Below are positions 1 to 61,100 of a stretch of 64,000 nucleotides of DNA, one piece after another. The notes under the pieces were generated by a model. That model did no database searches and was not told the origin of the DNA. It was given only the letters and a program-made list of their open reading frames with translations. The position numbers were made by a program, and so were the translations under genes. Origin of the DNA: Podarcis vaucheri (lineage: Eukaryota); the NCBI GenBank assembly GCA_965113315.1, contig OZ220372.1. One strand, 5' to 3'. How positions within the stretch are numbered: position 1 is the first letter of the stretch; the number at the start of each line of letters is the position of its first letter.

Positions 1-234
1 CAGCACAGCCATCTTCTCAGAAAAACTCTTCACAAGCTCAAGAGGTCAAGACACAAAAGCTTTAGCAACTAATCTACACTTAATGACCCACCCAGTGGTA
101 TTCAGAATATCACTCATGAAATCACTCAAGATATCCCTCAAGTAATTAAGGAACAAAAGAAGAAAAGGCACACTAATCTAGGAACTTCCTCTCTGCCCAG
201 AACGTTGGAGGCTATACACCACACCCCTCAACAG

Positions 235-242
235 TATTTATA
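235..242. promoter_or_regulatory. TATA-like element in the pLTR, ~60 nt upstream of the hammerhead (also at 587-594 and 2226-2233)
   Basis: TATTTATA on the element sense strand, TATAAATA on the antisense strand. The position fits a pLTR promoter; function is inferred. Confidence 0.35.
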
Positions 243-297
243 GGAACTCAAACACCAGACTCTGCTCTGTTCCAGTAACAAGAAGCCGAAAGCACCA

Positions 298-335
298 GCC
301 TGAAGATGACGAGTGAGACCTCGTCGAAACGTCGC
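298..335 (+). ncRNA. Minimal hammerhead ribozyme-like motif in the pLTR (copy A)
   Basis: CTGAAGA (300-306), extra T, stem II GACGAG/CTCGTC with 6-nt loop, GAAAC-GTC (326-333). Stem I is only ~2 bp (GC/GC). Confidence 0.75.
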
Positions 336-493
336 CCAGACACCCCGACTCTTACACGGGAAGACACCCGAAGACACCAAAACCTGCATATATATATATA
401 TATATATATATGCTTTCGTAGATTTTCACGGGTACAGGAATGCAGGTTTTGGTGTCTTCGGGTGTCTTCCCGTGTAAGAGTCGGGGTGTCTGT

Positions 494-531
494 GCGACGT
501 TTCGACGAGGTCTCACTCGTCATCTTCAGGC
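494..531 (-). ncRNA. Hammerhead-like motif (copy B)
   Basis: Reverse complement of the motif at 298-335. Confidence 0.75.
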
Positions 532-763
532 TGGTGCTTTCGGCTTCTTGTTACTGGAACAGAGCAGAGTCTGGTGTTTGAGTTCCTATAAATACTGTTG
601 AGGGGTGTGGTGTATAGCCTCCAACGTTCTGGGCAGAGAGGAAGTTCCTAGATTAGTGTGCCTTTTCTTCTTTTGTTCCTTAATTACTTGAGGGATATCT
701 TGGGTGATTTCATGAGTGATATTCTGAATACCACTGGGTGGGTCATTAAGTGTAGATTAGTTG

Positions 764-1394
764 CTAAAGCTTTCGTGTCTTGACCTCTTGAGCTTGTGAA
801 GAGTTTTTCTGAGAAGATGGCTGTGCTGCATTTAGTTGTGCTCTGGCTTGGCTTCGTGTATAGGGGCGAGCTGTGGTTTTGTGCCTTGTGCCAGCCAGAT
901 CTGTGTAGGGATTGCAGGGGGGTGCAGCATCCGGAGGTGCCACTATAGTTTGGCTACTGGATGGAGTCTGTAATATGTCTGTGGAGAGGGTCTGGGTTTG
1001 GGTCTGGTGTGGTTGATTGGTGACGGCGTTCTGTGTGCCTCTGGTTCTGGTGTCGGTTTTTGTGGGGAGGGCTAATTTCCAGATGTCTGGCAGGCGGGAC
1101 GTGTCGTCACGCTTGTTCATGTTGTGAGGGTGTTTCTCTATCTCGATGGCTTCCATGATTATTCTCTTGTGGTGATGTTCCATGTTAAAGAGCAATTTGG
1201 AATCTGCAAAATTAATTTCGTGTCCTGTTTCTTTCATGTGTTGGAAAAGAGAGGAAGTTTTTTCTTCTTTTTTGACGGCATTCTTGTGTTCTGCGATACG
1301 TGCATTTATTCGTCTGTTTGTTTGTCCAATGTACGTGGCTGGGCAGACTTTGCAGGGTATTTCATAGACCCCTTGGTTTTCCAGCTGGATTTTG
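764..1394 (-). CDS. Mirror copy of the PLE GIY-YIG ORF fragment
   Basis: C-terminal part of track ORF 764..1696; reverse complement of 1426-2056. Confidence 0.88.
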
Positions 1395-1414
1395 GTTTTC
1401 CAGCTGGATTTTGA

Positions 1415-2056
1415 AACCCAAAAGACAAAATCCAGCTGGAAAACCAAGGGGTCTATGAAATACCCTGCAAAGTCTGCCCAGCCACGTACATTGGACAAAC
1501 AAACAGACGAATAAATGCACGTATCGCAGAACACAAGAATGCCGTCAAAAAAGAAGAAAAAACTTCCTCTCTTTTCCAACACATGAAAGAAACAGGACAC
1601 GAAATTAATTTTGCAGATTCCAAATTGCTCTTTAACATGGAACATCACCACAAGAGAATAATCATGGAAGCCATCGAGATAGAGAAACACCCTCACAACA
1701 TGAACAAGCGTGACGACACGTCCCGCCTGCCAGACATCTGGAAATTAGCCCTCCCCACAAAAACCGACACCAGAACCAGAGGCACACAGAACGCCGTCAC
1801 CAATCAACCACACCAGACCCAAACCCAGACCCTCTCCACAGACATATTACAGACTCCATCCAGTAGCCAAACTATAGTGGCACCTCCGGATGCTGCACCC
1901 CCCTGCAATCCCTACACAGATCTGGCTGGCACAAGGCACAAAACCACAGCTCGCCCCTATACACGAAGCCAAGCCAGAGCACAACTAAATGCAGCACAGC
2001 CATCTTCTCAGAAAAACTCTTCACAAGCTCAAGAGGTCAAGACACGAAAGCTTTAG
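1415..2056 (+). CDS. C-terminal part of the PLE ORF: GIY-YIG endonuclease plus low-complexity tail (5'-truncated, no RT domain)
   Basis: Open frame NPKDKIQLENQGVYEIPCKVCPATYIGQTNRRINARIAEH...HMKETGH...RIIMEAIEI...NMNKRDD. It has the GVY/YIG motifs with intervening CxxC and the conserved R, H, E and N of the PLE GIY-YIG. Confidence 0.9.
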   Translation, partial: NPKDKIQLENQGVYEIPCKVCPATYIGQTNRRINARIAEHKNAVKKEEKTSSLFQHMKETGHEINFADSKLLFNMEHHHKRIIMEAIEIEKHPHNMNKRDDTSRLPDIWKLALPTKTDTRTRGTQNAVTNQPHQTQTQTLSTDILQTPSSSQTIVAPPDAAPPCNPYTDLAGTRHKTTARPYTRSQARAQLNAAQPSSQKNSSQAQEVKTRKL

Positions 2057-2288
2057 CAACTAATCTACACTTAATGACCCACCCAGTGGTATTCAGAATA
2101 TCACTCATGAAATCACCCAAGATATCCCTCAAGTAATTAAGGAACAAAAGAAGAAAAGGCACACTAATCTAGGAACTTCCTCTCTGCCCAGAACGTTGGA
2201 GGCTATACACCACACCCCTCAACAGTATTTATAGGAACTCAAACACCAGACTCTGCTCTGTTCCAGTAACAAGAAGCCGAAAGCACCA

Positions 2289-2326
2289 GCCTGAAGATGA
2301 CGAGTGAGACCTCGTCGAAACGTCGC
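2289..2326 (+). ncRNA. Hammerhead-like motif (copy C)
   Basis: gcctgaagatgacgagtgagacctcgtcgaaacgtcgc. Confidence 0.75.
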
Positions 2327-2486
2327 ACAGACACCCCGACTCTTACACGGGAAGACACCCGAAGACACCAAAACCTGCATATATATATATATATATATAT
2401 ATATGCTTTCGTAGATTTTCACGGGTACAGGAATGCAGGTTTTGGTGTCTTCGGGTGTCTTCCCGTGTAAGAGTCGGGGTGTCTGT

Positions 2487-2588: not shown

Positions 2589-3608
2589 ACAGACACCCCG
2601 ACTCTTACACGGGAAGACACCCGAAGACACCAAAACCTGCATTCCTGTACCCGTGAAAATCTACGAAAGCATATATATATATATATATATGCCATATTGA
2701 AAATTCAACAGTATTTTAGTGTAAATTTCTCCTAAACTATAAGTTACTGTATACAGTTTTGCCTAAGGTAATTTATTTATATGTAACTTTCACAAATATA
2801 TCAATTTTTGTGCAAATTACTTAGCTAAATAACTGTATCGTACTGCAAAATTTGGTGAAGGGGGAATTCCAAAGGATAGCTGTGTTTTGGTTCACATATT
2901 GTTCTGGAAAGAGCGAATCAGGTAGGTTTGCTTTTAAATGCAAACTTAATTGACTTTTCCCCCTCATCCCTAACTGGGGCTCCTGTTTTCTCCCCACTAT
3001 TGTAGGTCAGCTGTAGTGTTCTGCACCAAGTGCGATGTAGCCTTGGGTCGAAAAAGTTTCCCTTCCGCTGCAGTAGAAGATAGCTGTATATCAGGTGTTT
3101 GGCCCTCCAAATGTTGCTGAACTAGAGCTCCCATCAGTTGCAGCAAGCATGGCCAGTGGCTAGGGAGAATGGGAGTTGTAGTTCCCAAACACCTGCTCTA
3201 TGTGCAACATGACTAGAAGATAGAGTTTTCAGTACTATAATGAAGTTCAAAGTTCTGTCATACATGAATCTACTCCAGGTCCGTCCGTCCCCCCCCCCCC
3301 AAAAAAACCCAACTGTCTTACTTTCAGGAGCCCAATTTGAATGGAAAAAGGGGTTGGAGTTGGAAAACCTTGCCAATCTGCTGAGAAGCACGCAGAAATT
3401 GACTGGTAGATCTCAATCTCTCTTCTGTCCACCCCTGTTCCATTGCTACTGGCATCCACTCTGCAAGGTCTCTAGCAGAGACCTTTTTTATCAGCCTATT
3501 AATCAGAGATTAACTAGATCTGCTGGGATTGAGCCTGGAACCTTGTGCACGCAAAATGTGTGCTTTACCATAATCCAGGGAGAGAAACCAGGGACATGAT
3601 GCAATATT

Positions 3609-3837
3609 AAAGGTAAAGGGACCCCTGACCATTAGGTCCAGTCGTGGCCAACTCTGGGGTTGTGGCACTCATCTCGCTTTATTGGCCGAGGGAGCTTCCG
3701 GGTCATGTGGCCAGCATGACTAAGCCGCTTCTGGCGAACCAGAGCAGCGCACAGAAATGCCGTTTACCTTCCCGCCAGAGCGGCACCTATTTATCTACTT
3801 GCACTTTGATGTGCTTTCAAACTGCTAGGTTGGCAGG
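3609..3837 (-). mobile_element. Sauria SINE (partial, internally deleted)
   Basis: aaaggtaaagggacccctgaccattaggtccagtcg... is the reverse complement of the SINE 3' end seen at 58140-58180. Confidence 0.85.
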
Positions 3838-4117: not shown

Positions 4118-5574
4118 ATGTAGAGACTGAGGATCCTTTGCTATAATTATTGGTCAACCACATTCCAGGCCCAGGTCACAAGGCAAAGTTTGCACTCTTT
4201 CCCCACTTTTGTTGTTTCCTGGTTTCGCTTTTACAGCCCATATGGGATTAGCTCTATGTTCCTGATGTGCTTGGGCTATCATTTCAGGAAGAATCCTATT
4301 CAAAGAACTGATAGCTGACTGGGTAGTCTAAGGGCATCAGCTGTCTACTCTGCCTACTATTCCTCATTGAATCAAAAGTTTTAAACAGCGGCCCTCTCTG
4401 TGTCTACAGAAAATGTTTTGTTAAGTTAGATTTGGACAAGCATCTCACTCCTAGACATGTGCATATGCTGCAAATACTCTCAGGTTGCTTCCAGATGGCC
4501 TGTTCTCGATGAATGTTCATCCTGATCCGCTTGCAAAGTTTGAGGGAAAGTGATATATGTCTCCTATTTATTAAGCATTCATTCTGATTTGTTTGTGGGG
4601 ATGTTATATTATTATTGTTATTATTTTTTATTATTTTTATTATTTTTATTATTATTATATACCATCCTATACCCGCATTTATACTTTCCAGTGCATTTCC
4701 CCATCACTTTCTGTATGGCAAAAGTTCATTAAAAAAAAAAGTGCTGAACCTCCTTCAATGCCAGTAAATTTTAGCTGTGCGATTAGAACCCCATAGCAAA
4801 AACAGTGACAGTTGGGAAGCAACATCAGTAGCTTGCCCAGATGCTGTTAAACTGTCATCTTAGGCTGTGTAAGTCCATTCCAAATTACAAAAGATGTGAA
4901 AGCTTGCATTGACATGGAATGCTTTACGGTGGCTGCAATGCCTTTTGACTGGAGTGCATGCTTTTTTGCAATGCCTTTTGACTGCAGTGTAAATTATCCC
5001 ATATCCCACAGTCCCTCCACCTAACTTGGCACAGTGCAACTCTTAGTCTACAGCAGTGTGATGATGATGGAGGCTATTGCCAACACAGCTGCAGAGTTCT
5101 GTGTTAATAGGACATCACCGCTTGCAATGCCATTGCAGTTTCATAGCTCTTGATTATGTGCCTGTGCAGTGCCCTATCCTACACTAGGCTGTTTAAATTG
5201 GCTGTGGAAACCCTGGCAAGAGATCTTGCTTCATAATGTGAGCTCAGTGTACTTTGGCAGTGAAAAAAGTGGTGGAAAAGAAAAGCAAATTGATAGAGGG
5301 TAAGTCTATGAATGGCCAAGATCGGGCATCTGGCAAGACCTGCTTTTCAGCAAGTGGGTGAGGGATAGCAAAAGGCAGGTTGAGGTTGGTAGAAAGCATC
5401 CCGTTTGTCCTCATGGACGAGCCTCTAGTGCTGGTTGGCTACTGTGGGAAACAGGATGCTGGACTGGAATATGGAACTTTTGTTGTTGAACTGCAAGTCC
5501 CATCCACCCCAGTAGGTATGGCCAATCTCTCTGCATTCCTGTGTTGCATCCCTGTATTAGACTGCTCTGGCAGT

Positions 5575-5755
5575 TACAGATAGGTAGCCGTGTTGGTCTG
5601 CCATAGTCAAAATAAAAAAATTCCTTCCAGTAGCACCTTAAAGACCAACTAAGTTAGTTCTTGGTATGAGCTTTCGTGTGCATGCACACGAAAGCTCATA
5701 CCAAGAACTAACTTAGTTGGTCTTTAAGGTGCTACTGGAAGGAATTTTTTTATTT
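5575..5755. mobile_element. Fold-back pLTR fragment of a second Penelope-like family
   Basis: Perfect palindrome 5608-5757 (centre 5682/5683), 33-nt unpaired left tail, 12-bp TSD tgctctggcagt (5563-5574, 5756-5767). Contains the hammerhead 3' half cacacGAAAGCTC. Confidence 0.8.
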
Positions 5756-6409
5756 TGCTCTGGCAGTGCTCATCTTCTGTTCCCCAGCTTGCAGCATGGC
5801 TAATCTCAATACATTCAATACTCAATACATGTATTAGGTCATTCTACCTAATGTTTAACTTCAGCATGCCACGTCTACCTAAATTGTTTCTCGGCCAATC
5901 CTCAGAAAGCATGACAAATCTTTGGCCATTCTCTTCTTTCCTCAATCTTTTGAAAGTATTTGTAGACCCTTGAGGTATTGTACTCTATCCTCCTTAATCT
6001 TTTTGTCCCTTTGGGCTAAGCATACGCAGGTTCCTTCAGTTGTAACAGACTTAAAAACAAGATTTAAAATATATATACTTAGTGGAAGCACACAAACAAA
6101 TTCAAACATTTGGTGATCATGCAAACAAGCTGTCTTATCTCATGGATAGCCCCTTTGCTGTTACCCTGACAGCTGTGACTCAGCAGTGTCGGCCATTTTG
6201 GGGGTGAGTGAGACATAGGTTGTTGAGGTCCCCATCCCTAATGAAAATAGTCTCCAACCACTGTCAAATCACAAGTCACATCTGTCTCCATTGACTGATC
6301 CATAAAAATCACAGACCTGCTGCTTTGCAACACTCATCACAGCTTAAAATCATGGATCCAATGTACGGTCCTCATGAATCCTCATATTTTTGTACAAGGC
6401 ATCACCACA

Positions 6410-10534: not shown

Positions 10535-10598
<64 letters not shown>
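10535..10598. repeat. Compound microsatellite (TG)n(TA)n
   Basis: Directly visible. Confidence 0.95.
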
Positions 10599-10599
<1 letters not shown>

Positions 10600-10681
10600 G
10601 CTTTCGTAGATTTTCACGGGTACAGGAATGTAGGTTTTGGTGTCTTCGGGTGTCTTCCCGTGTAAGAGTCGGGGTGTCTGG

Positions 10682-10719
10682 GCGACGTTTCGACGAGGTC
10701 TCACTCGTCATCTTCAGGC
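10682..10719 (-). ncRNA. Hammerhead-like motif (second locus, left arm)
   Basis: Reverse complement of the same 38-mer. Confidence 0.75.
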
Positions 10720-10785
10720 TGGTGCTTTCGGCTTCTTGTTACTGGAACAGAGCTCTGTTCCAGTAACAAGAAGCCGAAAGCACCA

Positions 10786-10823
10786 GCCTGAAGATGACGA
10801 GTGAGACCTCGTCGAAACGTCGC
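10786..10823 (+). ncRNA. Hammerhead-like motif (second locus, right arm)
   Basis: Same 38-mer. Confidence 0.75.
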
Positions 10824-10870
10824 CCAGACACCCCGACTCTTACACGGGAAGACACCCGAAGACACCAAAA

Positions 10871-10916
<46 letters not shown>

Positions 10917-10919
<3 letters not shown>

Positions 10920-11099
10920 TTTCGTAGATTTTCACGGGTACAGGAATGCAGGTTTTGGTGTCTTCGGGTGTCTTCCCGTGTAAGAGTCGGGGTGTCTGTG
11001 CGACGTTTCGACGAGGTCTCAGAGACCTCGTCGAAACGTCGAAACGTCGCACAGACACCCCGACTCTTACACGGGAAGACACCCGAAGACACCAAAACC

Positions 11100-11103
<4 letters not shown>
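10917..11103. mobile_element. Mini fold-back PLE pLTR unit 2
   Basis: Centre at 11021 (gtctc-a-gagac), 8-bp duplication gaaacgtc in the right arm, followed by (TA)n 11104-11148. Confidence 0.9.
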
Positions 11104-11151
<48 letters not shown>

Positions 11152-57843: not shown

Positions 57844-58180
57844 CGGGACGCAGGTGGCGCTGTGGTCTAAACTACTGAGCCTAGGGCTTGCCGATCAGAA
57901 GGTCGGCGGTTTGAATCCCTGCGACGGGGGAGCTCCCGTTGCTTGGTCCCTGCTCCTGCCAACCTAGCAAGTAGATAAATAGGTACCGCTCCAGCGGGAA
58001 GGTAAACGGCGTTTCCATCCACTGCTCTGGTTCGCCAGAAGCAGCTTAGTCATGCTGGCCACATGACCCGGAAGCTGTCTGCGGACAAACGCTGGCTCCC
58101 TTGGCCAGTAAAACAAGAGGAGCGCCGCAACTCCAGAGTCGTCCGCAACTGGACCTAACAGTAAGGGGTCCCTTTATCTT
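57844..58180 (+). mobile_element. Sauria SINE, near full length
   Basis: Head gggacgcaggtggcgctgtgg; 11-bp TSD taagtaagaaa (57833-57843, 58181-58191). Confidence 0.95.
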
Positions 58181-61100
58181 TAAGTAAGAAAGAATTGCCC
58201 TTCAGTAGTTTGGATGGCCTCCTGGAAGGTCATGTAGTTGCACTGGTTAGTTGTCCGTAAGAATGATATAAATTGGCTAAAGTTTCTGCCTGTGGCAGTG
58301 GATATAAGTTTAGATACCCTTGTCTGCTTCCACCTTTGCAACTGATAGCGTGAGGTTTAATGCCATTACGGCGGCATTAGTTGGTTCTCTGTCTTCCAGG
58401 TCTTACTATTATTTGGCTTAAAGACCTATTGGAATGTACACCTCAAAATTTATGTGATTTGTTTTTCCTTGTAAGGCTGTGGTTTCTGCCCATTGGCTTA
58501 GATATGTTCTTGGATACTATGTTTTTTTCTACCTGTAGTTTGGCAGCAGATGGGGTCAGGCCAAATGTATCAATTGCAGCATATGGCCATTTCACAGTCT
58601 AATAGGAATTATCCATTGTTAAGTGAGCTTGGTTTGGGCCATGAAAATAATTCAAATAAATGGGTAGCTCAAAGTCACTATTGAAGCTTGCAATCACACC
58701 TGGTTTCACTAGTACATACAGATGAATCCTATAGAGCTAGATCAAGTCCACCGTCACCCAGGAATAAGGAATGACACAAGCTCAATGCCCAATGGGGACC
58801 CCTTGGCCTATACAAAATGTTCCCTTGCCCCAAACTCCTAGTCTGCCTGGAAAAATCTTTCACTATTGGCGTGTAGGGGTGAACTTTCCAGAAGTGGGGC
58901 TTGAGAGCACATTGCCTAGCATATAATGCCTAGCCTTGGCATCTCCTCCAAAGGGGTATGACAGCCCTCTCCATGCATAGAGCATCTATCTTGGCTGCCA
59001 TAGATCTAACACACCACTAAAAGCCTCCATGACATTCTCAGTGGGTGAACCCTCCATCTTCATGTGACATTTGCCAAATTATCCTTCCATCGAAGGGTCC
59101 TGCAACAAGTATTACAAAGTGTTTTTTCTCTGTGTTTTGGGAATATTGCTATTGGATAGCCCTTTGTTGTCTGCTCAACTCCCTTGACTTGAGAATGGAA
59201 GCTTTGTTACCAAGTGTTCTTCTGGTCAGCAGACACCCCCCCCCCCGTATTAGTACAACCAATCATGGAGGGTGGTTCACATCTTCTTCTGTGCTATTTA
59301 CCACAAATTTTCAATAAAGGACACTGTGGAGGTTTCCCGTCTCTCCATATTATTCTTTACTACTATTCTGCTGGCAACAAATGTAATCTGCCAATGGCTT
59401 TTTGTTTGTAGGAAATTTCTATGGTTAAGTCCCGAAACTAGAAGGTTCCTCCTCATCAGGAAGGACAGGTTTTTTTCTGATTGGCACTGCCTTCTTCTTG
59501 AACAGGCGTTAATCCTCTGCTCCCTGCTGACCAGAACATGACTCCAACTTTTTGTTCTCCCCTGGTCAACTGGTATTTTTAAAATGATCCATTACTCTGG
59601 GTGAGTTGGATAATGGCTTCACAACCAGCACAAGAGACAACCAGTCAGCTTTGTGCACAGCCACCTTTTATTGGAAACGGGGGAAACTTGTGGCTCCAGT
59701 ATGTGGGAGTTTCGTCTAATAAAAAAAAAAAGGCAAATGAAGGGAGCACATGCTGTGCAAATGAGAGATGTCTGTACATATCCAGGTTTTCAGAACAGAA
59801 TGCAGTTTGTTTGGCTTCAGATATTTGCATATATTATTCCAGCCAAAGCTAGAAGGTACCAACCATTCTCTTACCAAAAGTTGTCCTTTATCTTGGCAGA
59901 CATAAATTCACTCAGCCATAACTGACTAGTTGCCCTTGTATAAATCCTTCCTATTCCTCACTGGAAACAGACCGTGTTCATGTTGGAACTACTGGTGCAA
60001 ATGGAGGCCTGTGGCACAGAATGGAGGGTTTAAATTGCTCTGTAGAAGAGTGAAGTATATAGATGGTTAAGAAAACAAAAACAAATCCACAATAGCTAAT
60101 GTTCTTTATGTTCTGAATCCCAGGAAAATTTTAGTTTCAGCTCTGGTTTTTCAAAACTTGCTACGAGTCTCTTGCACCAAAGCAAGGTGTTTGGGAACTT
60201 GTGTCCATTACATACACAGATTCCACTATCACTGCTTACTAGTCAAGCATTCGTATTTTAATAGTGTTCATTGCCTCTTCAGTCATGAACATGTTATAAA
60301 TTATAAAAAGAAAAGGCAAAAGTAGGAATAAACATAGAAACAGACCTTACACCTCCCTCCAAGTAAAAGAAGATGGATGTAGTGTCAGGCTCAATTAGAT
60401 CCAATTGTGCTGGCTTTTGCCAACAAGAACAATGCCGCTTGTGTGACGAACTCCCAGCAGAAAGCATGAAATATTTTAAATAAAAGCAGCAATAGCCATC
60501 TAGGTGCTAGCTTCCTCTTGAGGGCACAGTGGAGGTCCAGTAAAACCTTACTCTGAACAGGAAATGCAAGGATGGCCTCCTCCCAACCCCAGGCAGAAAT
60601 TTAATCTTGTTCCTTTCCATGTGTTAGAACATGAATGTATTTCAGTGTTGAAGGAGAAACTGATGTTGCGGGTTCCACTGTAGCTGAGGAAGTGCCTGTC
60701 TTTCTGCTGTAGTTTTATGGACAGTTTACCTGGGGTACTGTTAGCTGAGAAGCCAACTAGTAGAGAGGAGAGTTTGAATGGAAGAGAGTAGCCTGCAGCA
60801 GCCCTGGAAGTGCTTGAAATGCAAATGTACAGGAACTCCAGACCATCCCCCACCCCCGCCCTCCACATGGAGGAAAAGCAGCTTAAATACAGCCAGGCCT
60901 GGAGAGGAATGTTAAAAAGAGGGAAAGAACCACCCCTCCTCCCTTCCATGGGGACCCTCACACAGCAAGATTCAGTATGCATGACTGAACAAGCAAGCAA
61001 GGACAGCTCCTCTTTTAACTTTCCTGAACAATGGCTGCTGCTCCTTCCACCATTTCACATTCTCTCTACCCCCCCCTTTAATAAGAAAAGAAGGGGAGAA

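Follow-up and report, generated by a model that had tools for sequence, protein, structure and literature searches.

Penelope-like elements (PLEs) such as Drosophila virilis Penelope, Adineta vaga Pen2a and Naiad/Chlamys carry an optional extension of 30–40 nt past the end of their pLTR, and in rotifer and Naiad elements this tail is present at one end or at either end of the inverted pLTR structures (PMC3846280, PMC8557442). With its 31-bp tail, the pLTR of Pen2a includes 22 instead of 12 codons of the ORF. Both papers explain the tail by endonuclease resolution and the inversions by self-priming. A biochemical account is available for PAc of Anolis carolinensis, which cuts and extends both target strands in vitro (Frangieh et al. 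2024, PMC11167929). Its reverse transcription starts at two adjacent internal sites, with the main start region at +111 to +118, and its tail of 30–40 bp is the sequence between them. An analysis of the pairing of sites per insert, of arm asymmetry or of 5' hot spots was not found in the portions of that paper that were searched. From the Drosophila, Adineta and Naiad/Chlamys examples, the elements described here differ only in host and family.

The window is the whole stretch of 64,000 nt that was analysed from Podarcis vaucheri (GCA_965113315.1, contig OZ220372.1). A preliminary description of this DNA reported about 30 extra nt on the left arm of three inverted inserts, missing from the right arm, and 30-mer matches bear this out for 411–2380, 10599–10874 and 10917–11104. 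The window contains five exact copies of the 30-mer of 411–440: four start at 411, 2404, 10599 and 10917, and a reversed one occupies 2642–2671. In the three reported inserts the partner arms, which end at 2379/2380, 10873/10874 and 11103/11104, lack it. At 411–440 the 30-mer lies on the minus strand, corresponds to nt +84 to +113 of the ORF (codons 28–38) and occupies the interval between a short and a long end site. In this large insert of what we call family A, the tailed arm (411–1394, minus strand) reaches to -871 from the ATG, and the tail-less arm (1413–2380, plus strand) covers -884 to +84 and includes a GIY-YIG C-terminal fragment (ORF 1415–2056). On the plus strand there is a TATA-like box at -71 (2226–2233), followed by a hot spot of 5' junctions at -42 (window 2255), the predicted transcription start, and by a minimal hammerhead-like motif (2291–2324) with the ORF ATG (2297) inside, recognised by eye from the PAc description. 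The centre of the palindrome (1380–1445) contains a duplicated piece of ~20 nt, which is likely a repair scar.

Positions 1–389 (plus strand) are the tail-less arm of a preceding insert (L067) that begins, tailed arm first, ~865 nt to the left of the window. A (TA)n target tract (390–410) separates the two inserts, and further tracts lie at ~2381–2403, 2672–2690, 10576–10598, 10875–10916 and 11105–11149. Family A also provides a spacer-less palindrome with both arms reaching to -42 (10599–10874, tail 10599–10628), a short inverted insert centred within the hammerhead-like motif (10917–11104, tail 10917–10946), and an insert absent from the preliminary description that has a tail on both arms (2404–2671, tails 2404–2433 and 2642–2671). 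The 33-nt left extension reported for the element at 5575 is confirmed as well. Within this family B tail (5575–5607, minus strand) lie an ATG in frame and roughly the first ten ORF codons, as read-through in L201 indicates; the tail adjoins a palindrome with 75-nt arms (5608–5757), the centre of which is the natural palindrome of the family B hammerhead-like motif. The insert, tail included, lies inside an 11-nt target site duplication (left copy 5564–5574, right copy 5757–5767). Bases common to element and target blur the tail boundaries, which gives lengths of 29–34 nt in family A and 33–37 nt in family B.

By its sequence features, family A is classed as an EN+ PLE of the Penelope/Poseidon type. 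Its tail continues into a 906-aa ORF in L063 that is intact and matches RVT_1 (E 6.7e-15) and, below the Pfam cut-off of 22.6, GIY-YIG (E 1.1e-3, 19.7 bits). L063 holds a 2,961-nt unit in partial tandem, and family A also forms 38 head-to-head pairs, a structure of the pLTR type. The likeness to PAc (Poseidon_Ac; PMC11167929) includes an RT together with a GIY-YIG domain at the C-terminus in one ORF, an ATG inside the hammerhead motif, which is hammerhead-like in family A, a tail made of ORF-start sequence between two end sites, AT-rich targets, and the long site, at +113 to +118 here and at +111 to +118 in PAc, positions that were compared by eye. The hammerhead-like core of family A can be made out by eye, and its ATG has the same placement as that of PAc; an Rfam search returned no hammerhead match and just hairpin-shaped miRNA matches below the gathering score, none of them meaningful. 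Unlike PAc, family A has (TA)n as its main target, and AT bases are common to its ends and the target. Both ends are AT-rich and match the (TA)n sequence there, so primer pairing may help to fix them, which differs from what is claimed for PAc. Two side observations concern this family: L061:488–4626 is a 4.1-kb near-perfect palindrome in which either strand has an open frame of 585 aa, and L066:4834–7723 belongs to an older subfamily (84–92% identical) and is nested in a young inverted insert.

Family B is assigned, on its linker motif, to the EN+ PLEs of the Neptune type. Longer copies contain an RT (YIDD), the linker CNKPRCQLC and a GIY-YIG domain (E 3.4e-6). The linker, seen in L074 and L173, has the CX2-5CxxC pattern upstream of GIY-YIG that is a Neptune/Nematis mark (PMC8557442); in the alignment, a CxxC linker before GIY-YIG is present in family B and absent from the family A protein P0001. 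The hammerhead-like motif, the tail and the inverted inserts are further features in common with Neptune-clade PLEs, from which family B differs by target duplications of typically 12–13 nt at mostly ordinary sites. No full-length copy was present among 40 long loci. The 575-aa open frame of L173 aligns to P0001 over RT and EN (29%, E 1e-52), so the two families, previously called unrelated, are homologous PLEs. Among 30 loci selected for a longer match, ten have a family B tail that leads into the ORF start, in frame from the ATG inside the tail. Because both tails run into the ORF and the proteins are homologous, they represent one kind of feature in two clades of a single superfamily.

Several arrangements of family B were seen in passing. 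L176:519–4640 is an inverted insert with both arms >1.7 kb and with one short and one tailed end. In partial tandems in L193, L196, L199 and L204 (after position 1500), a short ORF-start piece is directly joined to a new unit that starts at the 5' hot spot, which suggests a template jump from the RNA 5' end. L132:7041–7504 consists of five head-to-tail units of ~100 nt, each with a hammerhead-like motif, and resembles a retrozyme-like array; a 2026 retrozyme preprint has no passage containing 'tail' or 'initiation'.

The tails are neither chance nor an assembly artefact, and the ends of the arms fall into two states in both families. The 30-nt family A anchor has 12,743 exact matches in its own genome, and the first 100 matches listed (contig C1, 0–12.3 Mb) yielded 42 non-redundant loci with 106 arm ends: 54 at +79 to +84, 48 at +113 to +118, four that read through into the ORF and none at +85 to +112. 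Genome-wide, the short end followed by TA was counted 5,458 times and the tail followed by TA 6,271 times, patterns that overlap the anchor matches and are not nested in them. Among the long ends of the C1 sample, 28 stop at +113 and 17 keep two more element bases; these two micro-states suggest that a TA primer pairs with the RNA. No defensible shared structure emerged from MFE folds of the two end sites, calculated without a shuffle control. The family B anchor has 10,694 matches in the genome, and 107 ends were obtained from 61 non-redundant loci, which include most of the first 100 matches listed. Fifty-six are short, at +3 to +26 from the anchor (mode 13–15), and 49 are tailed, at +44 to +52 (mode 50); one lies at +60, one is the reference itself, and none lies at +27 to +43.

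The preliminary description had recognised the extra stretch as a PLE tail and had named broadly random lengths across genomic copies as the refuting outcome. The naming holds up and that outcome did not occur: the ends are two-state, random lengths were not seen, and in both families the extension is ORF-start sequence past the pLTR end, optional and present at either end. The extra 30–36 bases are thus almost certainly the known PLE tail, an internal sequence between two fixed arm-end sites. By likeness to PAc, both boundaries of this tail are likely start sites of reverse transcription; an in vitro assay of the type that had been proposed is already published for PAc, and there both sites are starts (PMC11167929). 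Since publications already cover the tail, the constancy of its length and its occurrence in several PLE families, the finding as first written adds two families. The tail is a described signature with a published biochemical explanation, and what has some novelty here is solely the rules of pairing, asymmetry and allele sharing. With roughly 12,700 and 10,700 young arm ends available from a single assembly, such rules become countable: one tail per insert, a tail-less arm that is usually longer, the same alleles in both arms, and 5' ends at a likely start site.

Pairs were defined as head-to-head arms with at most 60 nt between them. One tailed and one short end were found in 63 of 69 pairs (32/38 in family A and 31/31 in family B). 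The other six family A pairs comprise three with two tails, two with two short ends and one read-through. The gap rule or the hit filter removed inserts whose arms are further apart or have other pieces between them, namely L039 and one each in L031, L038 and L045 in family A, and L088, L098, L099, L100, L121 and one in L128 in family B. The dropped insert in L128 is gapped and has two tails, against the one-tail rule, and so does the window insert at 2404–2671. The polarity suggested by the window, with the tail on the left, is attributable to chance, given that the tail is on the left in 26 and on the right in 37 of the 63 asymmetric pairs (p=0.21).

We propose that each end of the cut target primes reverse transcription at one of the two internal sites, probably on the same RNA, and give this twin priming a probability of about 0.6 (0.55–0.6 for the mechanism on one RNA). 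Both families are PLEs whose arm ends lie at two sites only. As PAc does in vitro, the encoded protein would cut and extend both target strands, starting at the two internal sites that bound the tail. Priming from one target end would use the short site, which is upstream, and priming from the other end the tail site, which is downstream, so that one tail-less and one tailed arm would result; priming from a single end would leave a lone arm, with or without a tail. Both cDNAs would be copied from one RNA, the short-site cDNA usually becoming the longer one and many running off at the RNA 5' end ~30 nt past the TATA box. A few matching bases would then allow a head-to-head join of their 3' ends, and fill-in would complete the palindrome. 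For mammalian L1, Ostertag and Kazazian reportedly described twin priming in 2001, in which both target ends prime cDNA on the RNA and a 5' inversion results from a microhomology join. The second site of L1 varies in position and its arms are not known to overlap, whereas in the present families the two sites have a fixed spacing of ~30 nt and overlapping arms are the usual case.

The 5' ends of the arms agree with such a run-off. Hot spots of 5' junctions lie at -42/-37 in family A and at -79/-81 from the anchor in family B, ~29–33 nt past a TATA-like box, and would represent run-off at the predicted transcription start. An additional G, of the kind expected from a cap, is present at 11 of 18 family B junctions at -79 (p=0.014 against one third); of the 26 junctions at -81, 23 are preceded by T, for which we have no explanation. 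In the C1 sample, 5' ends do not cluster at the predicted hammerhead cut (+29 in family A). Examples of family B loci with a 5' truncation hot spot past the TATA-like box are L072, L085 and L095.

That one RNA served both arms is best argued for family A. At all 23 informative sites the two arms of an insert have the minor allele in common (shuffled mean 0.15; 0 of 2,000 shuffles reach 23), including 6/6 where the short arm is much longer, and paired arms differ at 12 of 10,269 bases, as against 0.93% for unrelated arms. The reach of the two arms is correlated (rho 0.75 overall; 0.79 in A and 0.38 in B). Together, shared minor alleles and correlated lengths make twin priming on one RNA the best reading, and a single template molecule per family A insert is the simplest one. 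Family B does not repeat this pattern, as no allele is shared, four are discordant at two sites, and the mismatch between paired arms (49/2,865) is no lower than between unrelated arms (1.24%).

Other observations also weigh against twin priming on one RNA. All steps of the mechanism are read from end products, with no intermediates seen; five of the 38 family A pairs, in addition to the window insert at 2404–2671 and the L128 insert, have two tails or two short ends; and shared alleles and correlated lengths would suit copy-back equally well. A more specific form, in which the tail-less site leads and the tail site follows ~30–36 nt behind, perhaps as two RT protomers in line, with cDNAs that often run off at the capped 5' end and are joined at their 3' ends in both Poseidon and Neptune clades, is put forward tentatively, at slightly less than even odds. 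If true, such coordinated twin priming would replace self-priming as the source of PLE palindromes. Neither it nor the pairing, asymmetry and allele rules were found in the literature searched, most subscription journals lying outside its coverage. The counting rules narrow how PLEs build inverted repeats and yield predictions for the existing in vitro system.

Priming at both sites could also take place on two RNAs held by a protein dimer and derived from a source copy active in that cell. PAc is a predicted dimer that extends both strands (PMC11167929), no displacement of the first cDNA would be needed, a single active source per cell would also give shared alleles, and inserts with two tails or two short ends would be accounted for. 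Independent cDNAs should not, however, share a far stop, as the arms do in L061 (-1965/-1972), in the window insert at 411–2380 (-871/-884) and in L046 (-212/-212) and as the overall length correlation implies, and two RNAs by themselves give no reason why different sites are used in nearly all pairs. We regard this variant as rather unlikely.

The mechanism offered in the preliminary description, in which only the tail end primes and the other arm is a copy-back strand that stops ~30 nt short, at a distance that an RT/EN footprint might set, meets with stronger objections. It is taken here as fold-back and self-copying of the cDNA, with asymmetric inserts due to later deletion at an unstable palindrome centre. 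It agrees with the one-tail rule, with identical arms and with correlated lengths, the centres often lie in natural palindromes (5682, ~11029), and self-priming has been proposed for PLE inverted junctions (PMC3846280). Under copy-back, the tailed arm is expected to be equal or longer. Among the 63 pairs, the arm that reaches further 5' is the tail-less one in 38 and the tailed one in 11, the two being equal within 2 nt in 14 (p=1.4e-4); if a margin of 20 nt is required, 17 and 7 pairs remain. The 11 pairs with a longer tailed arm speak against our reading. A copy of the tailed arm cannot pass the 5' end of its template without a later deletion, so that a tail-less arm reaching further disfavours copy-back.

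The tail-less end, moreover, looks like a priming site in its own right. The full-length copies L062 and L063 stop at the short site and have no inverted partner, the end of L063 lying at +83 between (AAT)n tracts. Lone short arms of family B, some with poorly defined 5' ends, have clear target duplications of 10–13 nt in 5 of 15 cases (L122, L123, L124, L125 and L135), a count that also weighs against our reading when set beside the 11 of 11 lone tailed arms with a duplication. Inversions of little beyond the tail exist (L048, L150, L155), and in 5 of 42 family A loci, as in the window palindrome at 10599–10874, the centre lies at -42 and lacks a spacer, which leaves no loop for fold-back priming. 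In addition, both sites start reverse transcription on RNA in the PAc system (PMC11167929). Longer tail-less arms, lone short arms, tail-only inversions and zero-spacer centres together favour two primed cDNAs and make copy-back improbable. The preliminary description was thus right in naming the tail and probably wrong in regarding the tailed end as the only primed one.

A further proposal, put forward in PMC8557442, derives the tail from endonuclease cleavage or from resolution of a transposition intermediate instead of a second start of reverse transcription. The D. virilis endonuclease required the tail for recognition, as cited in PMC11167929, but the start sites of PAc in vitro coincide with the two tail boundaries (PMC11167929), and this origin of the tail appears very unlikely. 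A fold-back artefact of sequencing or assembly, which perfect palindromes do resemble, is practically out of the question, as the preliminary description had held, since target duplications flank the family B inserts, the ends are two-state over thousands of copies, and identical ends recur in short-read contigs of other public runs, where, among the rows shown, loose ends followed by (AT)n occur at +84 in two of four runs and at +118 in three of four, and a loose start at -42 in one of four.

Neighbouring family A inserts within a single (TA)n tract have a common orientation more frequently than chance would give, with examples in the window at 389–411, 2380–2404 and 10874–10917. In one TA length class, 50 of 59 array junctions were covered, three of them unclassified; of the other 47, 32 are short/tail, six short/short and nine tail/tail (p=0.019). 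The modest excess of same-direction neighbours could stem from tandem duplication, as in L031, or from serial insertion. Another repeat is represented in the window by two inverted copies (3607–3802 and 57967–58183) that are 82–92% complementary.
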